Part shown: positions 3,603 to 8,280 of the stretch, piece by piece
How positions within the stretch are numbered: the stretch's first letter is position 1
Layout: every line of letters begins with the position of its first letter
IMG/VR virus record: IMGVR_UViG_2703718778_000005
Reading direction: 5' to 3' (one strand)
DNA from: a virus
Lineage: Duplodnaviria; Heunggongvirae; Uroviricota; Caudoviricetes
DNA: 8,280 nucleotides
Notes under the pieces: model-generated
The model's database searches: none
Told to the model about the DNA's origin: nothing
The model's input: only the letters and a program-made list of their open reading frames with translations
Made by a program: the position numbers and the translations under genes

Positions 3603-4715
3603 TTACTGGCGCTTATCCAGCGCGACAAACTGGCGGTCTTCCGGTCCAACATAATTGGCGGAAGGACGGATAATTTTGTTGTCCTGACGTTGTTCGATAA
3701 TGTGCGCCGCCCAGCCGGTGACGCGGGCGATAACAAACAGTGGTGTGAACATCTCGGTGGGAACGCCCATCATGTTGTAGGAAACAGCAGAGAACCAGTC
3801 GAGATTGGGGAACATCTTTTTGCTCTCCCACATCACCGTTTCCAGGCGATCGGCGATGTTGTACATCTTCAGCGAGCCGCCTTCCTGCGAGAGCTGCTTC
3901 GCCACACGTTTAATCACCTGGTGGCGCGGGTCAGCGATGGTGTAAACCGGATGACCAAAACCAATGACCACTTCTTTGTTTTCCACGCGCTTGCGGATAT
4001 CTGCTTCGGCTTCGTCCGGCGTTTCGTAGCGTTGCTGGATCTCCAGCGACACTTCATTCGCCCCGCCGTGTTTTGGCCCGCGCAGTGCGCCAATCGCGCC
4101 AATAATCGCGGAATACATATCAGAGCCGGTGCCCGCAATCACCCGACTGGTAAAGGTGGAGGCGTTAAACTCGTGTTCGGCGTACAGCACCAGCGAGATA
4201 TGCATCGCCTTTTCCCAGCTTTGCGATGGCTTTTCGCCGTGCAGCAGATGCAGGAAGTGACCGCCGATGGAGTCGTCATCGGTTTCCGGTTGGATGCGTT
4301 CGCCGTTGTGGCTGTAGTGATACCAATAAAGGAGAATCGAGCTAAGCGACGCCAGCAGTTTGTCGGCAATATCCCGCGCGCCAGAGACGGTATGCCCCTC
4401 TTTTTCTGGCAGCGTGCAGCCGAGCGCGGAAACACCGGTGCGCATAACATCCATCGGGTGTGACGCCGCCGGTAAGGCTTCCAGCACGGTACGCACGTTA
4501 GCCGGTAAACCACGCAGGGCTTTCAGTTTCGTTTTGTAAGCGGCGAGTTCGTCACGGGTCGGCAGTTTGCCGTGGATCAGCAGATGAGCCACTTCTTCAA
4601 ATTCGCAATGTTCCGCCAGATCAAGAATATCGTAGCCACGGTAATGCAGGTCATTGCCACTTTTACCCACGGTGCAGAGCGCCGTATTGCCCGCCGGAAC
4701 GCCGGAAAGTGCCAC
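3603..4715 (-). CDS. prpC: 2-methylcitrate synthase, 5'-disrupted (N-terminus replaced at the prophage junction plus a frame break; probable pseudogene or N-truncated product)
   Basis: The 370-aa ORF from GTG at 4713-4715 matches E. coli PrpC from about residue 20 ([33 protein letters not shown]...) to the C-terminus (...FVALDKRQ). Codons matching residues ~10-17 (STHVIKPK) lie at 4746-4723 in a different frame, and no in-frame ATG or native N-terminus exists upstream. Confidence 0.85.
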
Positions 4716-4748
4716 CGATTTTTCGGTTTAATGACATGGGTACTGTAA

Positions 4749-4769
4749 CACCCCGCATAACGCGGGGTG
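4749..4769 (-). other. GC-rich hairpin (8-bp stem, 5-nt loop) downstream of int; weak or non-canonical terminator, or att-arm structure
   Basis: caccccgc-ataac-gcggggtg is a perfect 8-bp inverted repeat. On the minus strand it is followed by TTACAGTACCC, so there is no U-tract and it is not a canonical intrinsic terminator. Confidence 0.35.
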
Positions 4770-4775
4770 CTGAAC

Positions 4776-4788
4776 TATCAACAACTTA
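4776..4788. promoter_or_regulatory. Candidate IHF-binding site in the att arm
   Basis: TATCAACAACTTA fits the IHF consensus WATCAANNNNTTR exactly. A related motif ATCAACGAC recurs at 4806-4814. Confidence 0.25.
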
Positions 4789-4877
4789 GAGAAAACACCT
4801 TAAAAATCAACGACACCCAAAAGCGATATAAGCCGCTATTAAGTGCCATTAATTCAGTTCGCGTAGGCAATGCGTAG

Positions 4878-5858
4878 TCAAACACCCAGTCCTCCACCAA
4901 GCGGATTTAGCGTAATCGCGTGCTGAAGAAAGTCCGGCGAAAGATGCGCATAAATCATCGTTTGCTTGATGCTGGCGTGCCCCATGATTTGCTGAAGCGC
5001 GATAATGTTTCCTCCGTTCATCATGAACCAGCTGGCGAACGTGTGGCGAAGTACGTGCGTTGACTGGCCCCGTGGTAAGTCAGGTTTTACACGCCGCAAC
5101 TGCTCGCGGAACTGAGCATAGTTCACATCAAAGAACGGCCCCGTTTCGCAGGTTTTGATCTCCCGCTCCAGCGCTTCCGAGATCGGCACCGTCCTTTTTT
5201 TGCCGTTCTTCGTTTTCAGAAAGGTCACACGCCCATGATTGACCTGCTCTGCCCGTAGCGTGCTTCCCTCATTCCACCGCGCCCCGGTACTGAGACACAG
5301 CAACGCCACCCGACGATTATCACCCTCCAGAAATTCCAGCAATCGGGCGATCTCCTGCTTTGTAAGGTAAGTCATCGGCGGCTGCGCCTCCCGTAGCGGC
5401 AGCAAACCGCGACAGGGATTTTCAACCCGAAATTCACCGAGTTTAATCAACGCGGTAAACATACCGGACAAACGATAGATATCGCGGTTAATGGTTGATG
5501 CGCTAATGCCATCTGTAAGCCGTTCGCCGCGATGCCTGGCAATTTCACGCTTATCAAGCCGGTTAACAGCCGGATTACCCAGCGCCCTGATTGTTTTTTC
5601 CAGTTGTTGCCTTTCGATTGCGCCGTTCTCCAGTGTCTGACCATGCAACAGCCACCAGATATCCAGCAATTCCCCAAGTGTGCGGCGATCAGTACTTGCG
5701 CCGAGCCATTCTTTTTTCTCGACGTTTGCCATCACATACCGCTCAAACAGGATAGCTTCCTGTTTTTTCTTGAAACGTCTGCGTATGCGTTTGCCTTCAC
5801 GACCACGCGGGTAAATATCCACCTGATATTGCCCCCCTTCGAGCTTCTTAATCGTCAT
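4878..5858 (-). CDS. int: Tyrosine site-specific integrase, P2/186/HP1 family
   Basis: 326-aa ORF. N-terminus MTIKKLEGGQYQVDIYPRGREGKRIRRRFKKKQEA is typical of P2-family integrases. C-terminal catalytic signature is present: TGARWNE (Arg), HVLRHTFAS (His-x-x-Arg), MIYAHL (Tyr nucleophile). Minus-strand RBS GGAGGG 7 nt upstream of ATG 5856-5858. Confidence 0.93.
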   Translation of the reverse strand: MTIKKLEGGQYQVDIYPRGREGKRIRRRFKKKQEAILFERYVMANVEKKEWLGASTDRRTLGELLDIWWLLHGQTLENGAIERQQLEKTIRALGNPAVNRLDKREIARHRGERLTDGISASTINRDIYRLSGMFTALIKLGEFRVENPCRGLLPLREAQPPMTYLTKQEIARLLEFLEGDNRRVALLCLSTGARWNEGSTLRAEQVNHGRVTFLKTKNGKKRTVPISEALEREIKTCETGPFFDVNYAQFREQLRRVKPDLPRGQSTHVLRHTFASWFMMNGGNIIALQQIMGHASIKQTMIYAHLSPDFLQHAITLNPLGGGLGV

Positions 5859-5924: not shown

Positions 5925-6248
5925 TTAACCAGTTTTGCGGACGGAGCGGCGCGACGTTGCCACATCTTCGCGCCCATCAGGGGAGAGAGTCGGGGCAATC
6001 TGCCCTGATTCCGGCGCAGTAGTATCAGTCATCAGCCACAGGGCGTACTTCTGAAACCGTGGGTGTGTTGTGATTTTGAGCAAAATTTCACTACCGACAC
6101 CATCCCTTCTCCCTGTCTCGTACTGTTTTTGAGTACTGGCAGGGACACCTGTAAGATCAAAGAATTGGCTTCTGGATAACCCTTCTGCATCTCTTATCAA
6201 ACGAATTTTTTCTCCTATCGAGCTTGACAGGGGTTCATATGACACCAT
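5925..6248 (-). CDS. Immunity repressor, P2 C-family
   Basis: 107-aa ORF with helix-turn-helix-like segment LSRSQFFDLTGVPASTQKQYETG and a C-terminal block WLMTDTTAPESGQIAPTLSP...KTG that closely parallels P2 C (...APESGQIAP...GQKTG) as I recall it. Located just upstream of and co-oriented with int, as in P2. RBS GAGGG 6 nt before the ATG. Confidence 0.85.
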   Translation of the reverse strand: MVSYEPLSSSIGEKIRLIRDAEGLSRSQFFDLTGVPASTQKQYETGRRDGVGSEILLKITTHPRFQKYALWLMTDTTAPESGQIAPTLSPDGREDVATSRRSVRKTG

Positions 6249-6345
6249 ATATTGCCCTCATTGGTTTCAATTGACACCATTCAATTAATACCGCTATAAG
6301 CGGATATAAACCGCCAATAGCACCAGAAAAAGGGGATTATTACAC
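6249..6345. promoter_or_regulatory. Lysis-lysogeny switch region between divergent C and cox (early and repressor promoters with operators)
   Basis: 97-bp AT-rich gap between divergent start codons. Contains TTGACA (6271-6276), the palindrome CCGCTATAAGCGG (6291-6303) and tandem 9-mers TATAAGCGG / TATAAACCG (6295-6303, 6305-6313) spaced 10 bp apart. Confidence 0.5.
6271..6300 (+). promoter_or_regulatory. Candidate sigma70 early promoter (Pe-like) driving cox and downstream genes
   Basis: TTGACA at 6271-6276, 18-bp spacer, TATAAG at 6295-6300. The -10 sits inside the tandem TATAA(G/A)C(G/C)G repeats, as expected if the repressor occludes the -10. Confidence 0.3.
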
Positions 6346-6627
6346 ATGAGAGACAGAGAGCTGGAGCGATATATCAACATCGGCTACCCAATTGATGCCG
6401 TCCCCGGCCCCAAATTCGCCGAGATGATCGGTAAACCGGCATCCGCTGTGAGTGACATGATTTCAGACGGAAAACTACCAGTTATTAAATGGCAGAACCC
6501 TAACGCTCTACGTTCACGCGCTGAAAACTGGATCTACATACCAGAATTCAACAAAGCGATGCGCGAAGCATTCTTTGCTCGCCCGAAAGAGCAACGGGAC
6601 GCATGGTTGTTGTGGATTGGATTGTGA
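6346..6627 (+). CDS. cox: Cox-family excisionase / switch repressor (P2 Cox-like)
   Basis: 93-aa ORF. FAEMIGKPASAVSDMISDGKLPVI...WIYIPEFN...RPKEQRDAWLLWIGL parallels P2 Cox (FAKLIGKSTGAVRRMIDKGKLPVI...WVYLPAWN...RPKEIRDGWLMWLGL) as I recall it. Divergent from C. Confidence 0.85.
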   Translation: MRDRELERYINIGYPIDAVPGPKFAEMIGKPASAVSDMISDGKLPVIKWQNPNALRSRAENWIYIPEFNKAMREAFFARPKEQRDAWLLWIGL

Positions 6628-6977: not shown

Positions 6978-7328
6978 ATGAAACAACAACGAAACGCGCA
7001 CCCCCATAACAACACTGAACGCCACAAATTGCGCAGTGGCGCAGAACGCAACGTTGCGAGTCACTCCCACCGTAAAACTGGTACGACCGCAACTACCGAA
7101 ATCCACGCAACACCAGACGGCCATCCGGTAAAACAAACCGGCAAGCACACCTGGGCGATTGGCGACACTGGCATCGTTATTCACAAAAGTTTTCGTAGCC
7201 CTGTTACTGGCAGATTTAATTTTACCCTGACTCGCGGAGATGATTACTTCGGACAGGACTTCACATTTTTTGAAGCGTTAAGAACGGTCGATCGGTTAAT
7301 GACTGGTCGTAATTTTCACGCTAAATGA
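6978..7328 (+). CDS. Hypothetical early protein with basic, His/Thr/Asn-rich low-complexity N-terminal half
   Basis: 116-aa ORF co-oriented with the early operon, GAGGA 10 nt upstream. N-terminal ~55 aa are low complexity (NAHPHNNTERHKLRSGAERNVASHSHRKTGTTATTEIHATPDGHPVKQTGKH); C-terminal half looks globular. A perfect 12-bp palindrome CGCAACGTTGCG lies inside at 7047-7058. Confidence 0.45.
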   Translation: MKQQRNAHPHNNTERHKLRSGAERNVASHSHRKTGTTATTEIHATPDGHPVKQTGKHTWAIGDTGIVIHKSFRSPVTGRFNFTLTRGDDYFGQDFTFFEALRTVDRLMTGRNFHAK

Positions 7329-7341
7329 TACAGATGAAAAC

Positions 7342-7557
7342 ATGGAAACATACAAAATTAAAAATATTGAACACCATGACGGTTTTTTCAGCACTGAACA
7401 TGTTGCTTGTGTTGTCAGGATTTTCAATGAAGTAGATGTGATTTTGAAGCAAAACATAAAGCTTGAAATCATCGCAAAAAGCGAAGCCGACGCCATTGAA
7501 ATAAAAAAAGCTATTGAACGCCAGATAATGCCGTTGACAAGTATCATTGCATTTTAA
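7342..7557 (+). CDS. Hypothetical small protein (71 aa), first gene of the AT-rich cassette
   Basis: ORF in a region of roughly 30-35% GC by eye. No strong SD; starts 14 nt after the preceding stop. No family recognised. Confidence 0.42.
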   Translation: METYKIKNIEHHDGFFSTEHVACVVRIFNEVDVILKQNIKLEIIAKSEADAIEIKKAIERQIMPLTSIIAF

Positions 7558-7575: not shown

Positions 7576-7815
7576 ATGACCAGAAATTACAAAGAAATCG
7601 TCAATCAGATCATTAAGGCTTACAGCCACCGCATCGCAAAATCACCCGAGTTCATACGCATAATGGAGACGCGCTCATTAATGCAAGGACTGAACGGGTT
7701 GGCACTGGCCGCATTGGCAGCTAACGATATTGATGCCACTATCGAAATAAACAACCTGTTATTAGACATTGAAAAAGGCGGAAACATAGAACCCTACAAT
7801 CTGGAGGCCGCATGA
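7576..7815 (+). CDS. Hypothetical small protein (79 aa), probably helical
   Basis: ATG 7576 with AGGA 9 nt upstream. The stop overlaps the next start as ATGA at 7812-7815. No family recognised. Confidence 0.5.
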   Translation: MTRNYKEIVNQIIKAYSHRIAKSPEFIRIMETRSLMQGLNGLALAALAANDIDATIEINNLLLDIEKGGNIEPYNLEAA

Positions 7816-7937
7816 GCGTATTTCTTTCGTGGGTAATTCTGATTATCTCCGTGCTTATGACAATCGGCATTATGCGAATTATCCACACACTGAAGGATAT
7901 CGAATTATTCTTTACCGGCGATAAACGCCGTAAATAA
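7812..7937 (+). CDS. Small membrane peptide (41 aa, one predicted TM helix); not in the supplied ORF track
   Basis: MSVFLSWVILIISVLMTIGIMRIIHTLKDIELFFTGDKRRK has a hydrophobic ~20-aa core and a charged C-terminus. GGAGG at 7803-7807; start overlaps the upstream stop (ATGA), suggesting translational coupling. Confidence 0.35.
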   Translation: MSVFLSWVILIISVLMTIGIMRIIHTLKDIELFFTGDKRRK

Positions 7938-7949
7938 AGCGAAAACCTT

Positions 7950-8051
7950 ATGAAGAATGTAAAAGCAATACTCACCATCGCCACTGTATGGGTGATATTT
8001 CAGGTGAGTGCGCTTATCTGGTTAGCCCTGAAGAATCTGGGGATAATCTGA
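7950..8051 (+). CDS. Small membrane peptide (33 aa, one predicted TM helix); not in the supplied ORF track
   Basis: MKNVKAILTIATVWVIFQVSALIWLALKNLGII. Weak RBS; 12 nt after the previous stop. Support is weaker than for the 41-aa peptide. Confidence 0.25.
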   Translation: MKNVKAILTIATVWVIFQVSALIWLALKNLGII

Positions 8052-8101
8052 AGCCGAAAGCAGGCGCGGAATAACACCAGAAAACACACGAACAATTAAT
8101 T

Positions 8102-8117
8102 AAGGCATTCATGCCTT
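8102..8117 (+). other. Short inverted repeat AAGGCAT-tc-ATGCCTT between the micro-ORFs and the next gene
   Basis: Near-perfect palindrome; a T-run (tctttttt, 8131-8138) lies 13 nt downstream, so it is not a canonical terminator. Possible operator or attenuator. Confidence 0.2.
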
Positions 8118-8151
8118 CGGATTCCCTTTGTCTTTTTTCAGGAGCCAACAA

Positions 8152-8280
8152 ATGAGAACAGTCGAATCACCCGCAACCGCCAGACCAGTTAACCATCATG
8201 CACATATCAGCATGGCCGCAAGAAAAGCCGAGCGTGCGCATATCTGCGAATTGCTGCGCGAGCTGACTGAGACAGCGAAA
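8152..8280 (+). CDS. Hypothetical early protein, N-terminal 43 codons only (continues beyond window)
   Basis: ATG 8152 with AGGAG at 8140-8144 and a 7-nt spacer. Open frame MRTVESPATARPVNHHAHISMAARKAERAHICELLRELTETAK runs to the window end. GC content returns to ~55%. Confidence 0.45.
   Translation, partial: MRTVESPATARPVNHHAHISMAARKAERAHICELLRELTETAK

Follow-up and report, generated by a model that had tools for sequence, protein, structure and literature searches.

A conserved P88 gp07-type gene for a predicted membrane micropeptide and a rare candidate companion ORF in the early operon of a P88-like prophage of Escherichia coli

The closest described relatives of the first of the two small genes considered here are found in phage P88 and other members of Xuanwuvirus in the P2 family. 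The counterpart in P88 is gp07, which public annotation labels 'membrane protein' (YP_009113050.1). The paper on P88 has tail fibres as its subject, and our literature search found no paper that mentions either the family of gp07 or DUF4754, the family of the gene that precedes it. In P2 itself, the early operon is ordered cox-orf78-B-terminator-orf80…A and is read from the annotated promoter Pe; the terminator after gene B is annotated as putative and consists of a hairpin, a gap and a T-run. Small hydrophobic proteins are familiar from several other settings. Bacteria use small single-TM proteins as regulators, with MgrB-PhoQ, AcrZ-AcrB, MgtS-MgtA and CydX as examples, superinfection-exclusion proteins of this size are known, and the early operons of other phages are known to include host-killing genes.

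Here, we analyze an 8,280-nucleotide stretch of DNA (the window) that contains two back-to-back ORFs, ORF41 and ORF33, each encoding one hydrophobic helix. The original prediction drew attention to this pair, to a GGAGG Shine-Dalgarno (SD) sequence and an ATGA overlap at the start of the first ORF, and proposed that the two peptides could be the toxic effector end of a cassette that includes the 71- and 79-aa genes upstream. The anatomy was read correctly: the coordinates of both ORFs are exact, and both the SD and the overlap can be read in the sequence (Table 1). We find that ORF41 is a conserved and already annotated phage gene, and that ORF33 is a rare, lineage-specific and mostly unannotated add-on with no relatives outside its lineage. 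Our main reading, to which we assign a probability of roughly 0.55, is that both are genuine small coding genes, located where the promoter-proximal block of a Pe operon ends.

The element that carries both ORFs is a P88-like (Xuanwuvirus, P2-family) prophage of E. coli; among sequenced phages, P88 and other members of Xuanwuvirus stand closest to it. On its minus strand the window contains prpE, prpD and a prpC that is truncated at its 5' end; beyond these lies the left end of the prophage, which is seated in the 5' end of prpC. Host homology stops near 4746 (junction ~4746, region 4640-4880), and this junction is common to only 5 of 5426 complete E. coli genomes. The prpC frame in the window opens only from a GTG (370 aa), and a run of five A at ~4721-4725 is a possible site of a 1-nt deletion relative to intact prpC, for which we take the K-12 sequence as the presumed reference. 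Past the junction, the window carries an integrase, a C-type repressor and, divergently, a plus-strand operon that begins with Cox. In the near-identical prophage of E. coli LZSFT34 (L001), the genes downstream encode a 3'-5' exonuclease, a ParE-like protein, Dam and a 'derepression protein', and then the gpA replication endonuclease, portal, terminase, GPO scaffold and P2-family capsid proteins. The int/C/Cox switch in the window, combined with this series of genes in L001, identifies the operon as the Pe early operon of a P2-family phage. The idea of a cassette with an effector end is not borne out: the locus is no toxin or defence module but a Pe-driven early operon. Because the Pe-like promoter is the only sigma-70-type site found upstream on the plus strand, with none between it and the ORFs, it is the likely promoter of both, although the search was a simple consensus scan that could miss an internal promoter. 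In this complete relative (L001 15717-24060), the ParE-like gene is of toxin type, the Dam gene encodes a methylase, the 'derepression protein' is P4-epsilon-like, and a TumE/HVO_A0114 toxin-antitoxin pair likewise precedes the portal gene; for defence or addiction, these accessory loads may outweigh both micropeptides.

Table 1. Positions of the two small ORFs and of surrounding features in the window
Feature	Position	Strand	Details
Integrase	4878-5858	-	ORF and family scans (Pfam, PHROGs)
C-type HTH repressor	5925-6248	-	Family scans (Pfam, PHROGs)
Pe-like early promoter, TTGACA-18-TATATT	6224-6253	+	Strong promoter-like site in a consensus scan; layout as for the annotated Pe of P2
Cox	6346-6627	+	Family scans; first gene of the divergent plus-strand operon
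82-aa ORF	between Cox and DUF4761 gene	+	
DUF4761	6978-7328	+	Family scans
71-aa ORF	7342-7557	+	Between DUF4761 and DUF4754 genes
DUF4754 gene, 79 aa	7576-7815	+	Pfam PF15946, E 8.5e-8; phrog_2549, E 2.7e-24
GGAGG Shine-Dalgarno of ORF41	7803-7807	+	4 nt before the ATG; inside the last DUF4754 codons
ORF41, 41 aa, MSVFLSWVILIISVLMTIGIMRIIHTLKDIELFFTGDKRRK	7812-7937	+	ATG start; P88 gp07 family
Lineage-specific 133-nt segment carrying ORF33	7938-8070	+	Bounded by a short AATAA repeat
ORF33, 33 aa, MKNVKAILTIATVWVIFQVSALIWLALKNLGII	7950-8051	+	ATG start; 31, 33 or 34 aa in relatives
Palindrome/hairpin AAGGCATTCATGCCTT (8102-8117) and T-run (8133-8138)	8102-8138	+	Ends the module with both ORFs
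Next gene	SD 8140-8144, ATG 8152	+	

ORF41 very probably encodes a real, translated membrane micropeptide. Its ATG (7812-7814) overlaps the TGA of the DUF4754 gene (7813-7815) to form the ATGA at 7812-7815, and the hexamer GCATGA is found at this junction in 108 of 108 loci, drawn from genomes, viral contigs and phages and including the window. Relatives of ORF41 carry GGGG, GGAG or GAGG at a comparable SD distance. The best 19-residue Kyte-Doolittle window of the peptide scores 2.61 (residues 3-21), the predicted TM helix covers approximately residues 3-24 and is followed by a charged C-terminal tail, and an AlphaFold2 model is a single helix from residue 2 to residue 40 (mean pLDDT 85). Nucleotide variation in the gene has the pattern expected of a coding sequence: among 34 unique nucleotide versions, variable columns are distributed 23/8/32 over the three codon positions, and pooled pN/pS is 0.29 (median dN/dS 0.17) as compared with 1.05 and 3.04 in the shifted frames. 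Over the first 37 codons, the ORF41 frame alone is open in 33 of 33 unique sequences, with any other frame open in at most 14 of the 33. The peptide is 63-90% identical across groups, as against only 27-34% for its DUF4754 partner; from the window to P88, where synonymous sites are near saturation, the ORF41 peptide is still 63-66% identical. Conservation is concentrated on a near-invariant helix face comprising F4, S6, W7, L10, I11, I12, S13, V14, G19, I23 and I24, and the family also shares a juxtamembrane motif, I-E-x-x-F-T-G.

Judged by sequence homology, by its position at the ATGA overlap and by the signature of purifying selection, ORF41 belongs to the P88 gp07 family. Over its whole length it fits the motif of this family of 37-41-aa peptides, M-S-[VI]-F-x-S-W-x-x-L-I-[IL]-[SA]-[VI]…G-I-M-R-I-I, and a tblastn search against phages recovers P88 and other Xuanwuvirus members at 59-66% identity (95-100% of the query, E 1e-7 to 4e-10); one further match is weaker and partial. 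In E. coli, PGAP calls the gene a 'hypothetical protein' in 6 of the 6 loci that we opened (WP_062851068.1 and others). A blastn query composed of the DUF4754 gene, ORF41 and the spacer finds at least a partial match in 1392 of 5426 complete E. coli genomes (~26%); for 1359 genomes, identity of the best match reaches only 60-80%, and among the matches listed, distant hits align only over the ORF41-plus-spacer part of the query. Even so, the family is small and narrow. A profile search of 1.84 billion representative proteins returns 13 matches, about five of them genuine clusters, a profile scan of GTDB genome contigs returns only 2 species representatives, and all family members lie in Escherichia or Citrobacter phage contexts. 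Scans of ORF41 and ORF33 against Pfam, PHROGs, PADLOC and NCBIfam yield nothing meaningful, the P88 gp07-like family being without a Pfam or PHROG model, and PDB sequence searches with both peptides give no match. Two of the loci retrieved are unusual in other respects. In one genome (L012 1-2626), a DUF4761-84aa-DUF4754-ORF41 block adjoins a Mu-type transposase gene, with no P2-type int/C/cox switch at that place, and may represent a hybrid or a neighbouring insertion. A record labelled Vagococcus sp. WN89Y (L024, NZ_JBQPOM010000071.1) has an ORF41 locus of the P88 type, as is typical for phages of Escherichia, and its label likely reflects contamination or mislabelling.

Of the two upstream genes that the original prediction linked to the pair, the 79-aa DUF4754 gene is indeed tightly linked to ORF41. 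The 71-aa gene, which has no family match in Pfam or PHROGs, occupies a variable slot: it is missing in two loci (L005, L006), and elsewhere unrelated ORFs of 84 or 92 aa take its place. The AlphaFold2 model of the DUF4754 protein is a three-helix bundle (helices 3-20, 25-48 and 52-66; mean pLDDT 93.5) that is predicted to be soluble, and a Foldseek search of the PDB with this model returns generic helical matches only, all at E > 1. The conserved C-terminal motif of the protein, G-x-x-I-E-P-Y-x-L, overlaps the ribosome-binding site of ORF41. In a profile protein search the DUF4754 family is almost confined to Escherichia, and a narrower DUF4754 alignment search for related loci recovers only 80 copies, identical to P88 gp06. 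We also considered whether related elements encode a single longer protein in place of these small genes. The 103-128-aa DUF4754 'fusions' are rare frameshifted proteins in clusters of 1-17 sequences, so such a protein is not borne out.

ORF33 is a different case. It lies on a 133-nt segment that is present in 21 of 5426 E. coli genomes and has the same context in every locus retrieved; two prophages that belong to that lineage (L003, L004) lack the segment, as do all loci of the P0010 and P88 types, and where it is missing 79-93 nt separate ORF41 from the next gene. The tandem pair described in the original prediction is thus present in the window but is not obligate, since most relatives have ORF41 without ORF33. 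PGAP calls ORF33 in 0 of the 21 genomes, and three sporadic GenBank entries give it as a 'hypothetical protein'. The ORF has no SD, its ATG being preceded by AGCGAAAACCTT, and it starts 12 nt past the ORF41 stop in the same frame; in 8 of 8 variants the gap between the two ORFs consists of the TAA and four sense codons, AGC GAA AAC CTT. Read-through of the ORF41 stop would yield a 79-aa two-helix protein, and a fused ORF41-ORF33 frame is seen in no relative. The best 19-residue Kyte-Doolittle window of ORF33 scores 2.15 (residues 7-25), a tblastn search with the peptide against phages and plasmids finds no match, and the ORF41 profile does not recover it. We considered two possible origins: ORF33 lacks the similarity to ORF41 expected of a tandem duplicate, as the two share no motif when placed side by side and the profile search does not join them, and the 133-nt segment is not a mobile repeat, as its 25 places in 21 genomes have the same context in all loci retrieved.

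We consider ORF33 probably translated and functional, since its frame is kept in all eight nucleotide variants and in-frame pN/pS is low, albeit in limited data. The alternative that only ORF41 is a gene, with ORF33 a chance frame in a spacer insertion or duplication that specifies no functional peptide, is a serious one, though we judge it to be on the doubtful side. Its appeal lies in the missing SD, in the absence of ORF33 from most relatives, L003 and L004 included, and from PGAP annotation, and in a 1-nt indel near the end of the ORF that switches the tail between KNLGII and KIWE or KIWG. The +2 frame is likewise open in all variants. Moreover, the start of ORF33, TATGAAGAATGTAAAAGCAAT (window 7947-7970), matches a P88-type non-coding spacer, TAAGAA-AATGTAAAAACAAT (L007 3070-3095), over its first 21 nt, with a score that 0 of 500 shuffles reached. 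This homology hints that ORF33 may have grown out of spacer sequence, and either that derivation or the survival of an ORF33 remnant in P88 would produce it. A chance frame nevertheless sits poorly with how the segment has changed. Within the 28-codon core, variable columns fall 5/6/12 over the codon positions, and pN/pS is 0.25 in frame as against 0.64-3.78 in the other five frames (1.54 in the +2 frame). Synonymous changes are in excess, with a mutation simulation giving P = 0.013 for as many of them and ~14 synonymous against 11-12 non-synonymous events giving a binomial P of 0.0003-0.04 depending on the neutral expectation used, statistics that rest on ~25 substitution events among closely related, non-independent sequences. 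All eight variants are open (31-34 aa), one of them by way of a 3-nt insertion that leaves the frame intact, and the replacements are conservative (T/S, V/A, V/L, I/V, S/C), with hydrophobicity kept in every variant. The rate of change in the segment can be read both ways: the TM core of ORF33 evolves faster than the adjacent downstream spacer (27% against 9% variable columns), which speaks for a chance frame, but in the non-coding remainder of the insert 50% of columns vary, about double the share in the core. A second alternative to a functional ORF33 peptide is that the element that matters in 7938-8150 is an RNA, such as an attenuator, a processing site or a small RNA, and that the ORF33 frame is incidental. 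The spacer at 8070-8151, with its hairpin and T-run, is indeed the most conserved stretch of the compared interval from ORF41 to the next gene. Every lineage has a hairpin here; instead of the perfect palindrome of the window, others carry TCCGC-ATTC-GCGGA or TCCGT-ATTA-ACGGA, the two related by one compensatory C-G to U-A change. The putative terminator of P2 is in a comparable place, and the whole 7930-8160 region folds with z = -1.97. Yet this conserved hairpin lies outside ORF33, and substitutions in L018 and L019 disrupt the stem that does lie inside it (~7970-8010). Taken by themselves, the hairpins have little thermodynamic stability (z -0.25 to -1.76), and an Rfam search gives no match at E <= 1. 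As an RNA element would also leave the third-position substitution bias in ORF33 unexplained, we regard this explanation as very unlikely.

Two further explanations accept one or both peptides as real and differ from our reading in what the peptides would do. The original prediction raised toxicity; in the fuller form of that view weighed here, one or both peptides would damage the membrane in the manner of Kil, a holin or a type I toxin, with the upstream proteins as modulators or antidotes. Many small membrane toxins and holins are built in this way, from an N-terminal TM helix and a short charged tail; the close ATGA link between ORF41 and DUF4754 could mirror an effector/neutraliser pair; and host-killing genes in the early operons of other phages offer a precedent. 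The searches, however, give this idea no positive support: Pfam at E <= 1 returns no Hok, Ldr, TisB, Ibs, ShoB or holin family, and PHROGs, PADLOC and NCBIfam are empty of toxin, holin or defence matches as well. Neither ORF is covered by an antisense promoter/terminator pair or by an Rfam RNA that could serve as an antisense or sRNA partner; the minus strand offers only a weak (9/12) promoter-like site, which lies inside ORF41, faces away from ORF33 and has no matching terminator, and a fold of z = -0.67. Both ORFs belong to a long operon, with no unit of their own, and lie between cox and the replication genes, not beside the endolysin in a late lysis cassette. Furthermore, the sequence of the ORF41 helix is constrained to an unusual degree and varies less than the soluble gene beside it, which suggests that a specific contact fits better than non-specific membrane damage, and ORF33 is dispensable in most relatives. 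On this balance, a non-specific toxic role is unlikely. We give still less weight to the proposal that these are exclusion or conversion proteins, made in the lysogen from an internal promoter to block entry of the DNA of other phages. It would suit small, predicted single-pass inner-membrane proteins of a temperate phage, for which exclusion proteins of such size provide a parallel, and ORF33 resembles an accessory gene inserted in a spacer. Against it, our crude consensus scan finds no promoter-like site on the plus strand from Pe to the ORFs, which lie inside an early operon repressed by C; the conversion genes of P2, tin and old, lie elsewhere and are separately transcribed; and PADLOC gives no match.

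We therefore return to the reading of ORF41 and ORF33 as two genuine small genes of the Pe operon, and on this basis propose how they might act. Both peptides would be made when Pe is derepressed, upon infection or induction, and would not be made in the resting lysogen. ORF41 would be a 37-41-aa single-pass inner-membrane protein, which by the positive-inside rule would place its two-residue N-terminus outside and its basic C-terminal tail (KRRK) in the cytoplasm, and its translation may be coupled to that of DUF4754 through the invariant ATGA overlap. The conserved helix face and juxtamembrane motif could then contact a partner, either another membrane protein or ORF41 itself, and ORF41 may possibly tether the DUF4754 three-helix bundle to the membrane. 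We favor a specific contact because the ORF41 helix is more constrained than simple anchoring requires, though we advance action through such helix contacts only tentatively, and the conservation of the TM helix would also fit self-oligomerisation into a pore. ORF33 would be a young accessory micropeptide, encoded on an insertion that separates ORF41 from the spacer hairpin; ribosomes would probably re-initiate on it 12 nt beyond the ORF41 stop, and, to judge from its charge distribution, it would insert in the direction opposite to ORF41. Taken to its furthest point, this model would have ORF33 recently born by duplication or expansion of the spacer upstream of the hairpin into a TM micropeptide, would join it with ORF41 in an antiparallel two-helix unit, as the opposite orientations predicted by the positive-inside rule suggest, and would make ORF41 the defining member of a new class of phage micropeptides, made early and directed at a conserved inner-membrane protein of the host; we offer this extended version as speculation and think it quite improbable.

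The practical value of these observations is better annotation, and they overturn nothing. ORF41-type genes occur in P88-like prophages in approximately a quarter of complete E. coli genomes and are more conserved than their neighbours; a defined role for ORF41, for instance through a membrane target in the host or an influence on induction or superinfection, would close a gap in the early biology of P2-family phages. ORF33, for its part, is a clean, small case of a micropeptide gene that has a coding signature but is left out of annotation, and it may also exemplify the birth of a gene from spacer sequence.

Set beside known systems, ORF41 differs in nothing essential from the P88 gp07 family. 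It is 63-100% identical to P88 gp07, its Xuanwuvirus homologues and the PGAP 'hypothetical protein' entries WP_062851068.1 / WP_000021704.1, and is like them in length class (37-41 aa), in its N-terminal TM motif, in its position after DUF4754 and in the 4-nt overlap; the differences are a threonine at position 17, where most family members have alanine, and a tail of the 41-aa form (…GDKRRK) where P88 gp07 has the 37-aa form. The surrounding operon has the same switch and layout as the early operon of P2, and ORF41 and ORF33 end at a place comparable to that of the putative terminator after gene B in P2. P2, however, has no ORF41-like hydrophobic ORF in this operon, and the DUF4761-DUF4754-ORF41 block replaces orf78-B. 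Like type I toxins (Hok/Gef, Ldr, TisB, Ibs, ShoB, ZorO) and holins, the two peptides are short and hydrophobic, carry charge at one end and could have toxic effects when overexpressed; unlike them, they have no family match, antisense RNA, promoter of their own, stand-alone locus or place in a lysis cassette. In its size, its single predicted TM helix and the conservation along one helix that includes small and polar residues (S, G, W), ORF41 resembles the small single-TM regulators of membrane proteins, as in MgrB-PhoQ, AcrZ-AcrB, MgtS-MgtA and CydX (PMC12648545), and these features would suit a peptide that acts by binding to a larger membrane protein. It shares no sequence similarity with that class and is encoded by a phage in an early lytic operon; the comparison is only one of how ORF41 might work. 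In kind, both ORF41 and ORF33 are ordinary small single-TM phage proteins, and their likeness to bacterial membrane regulators is one of form only.
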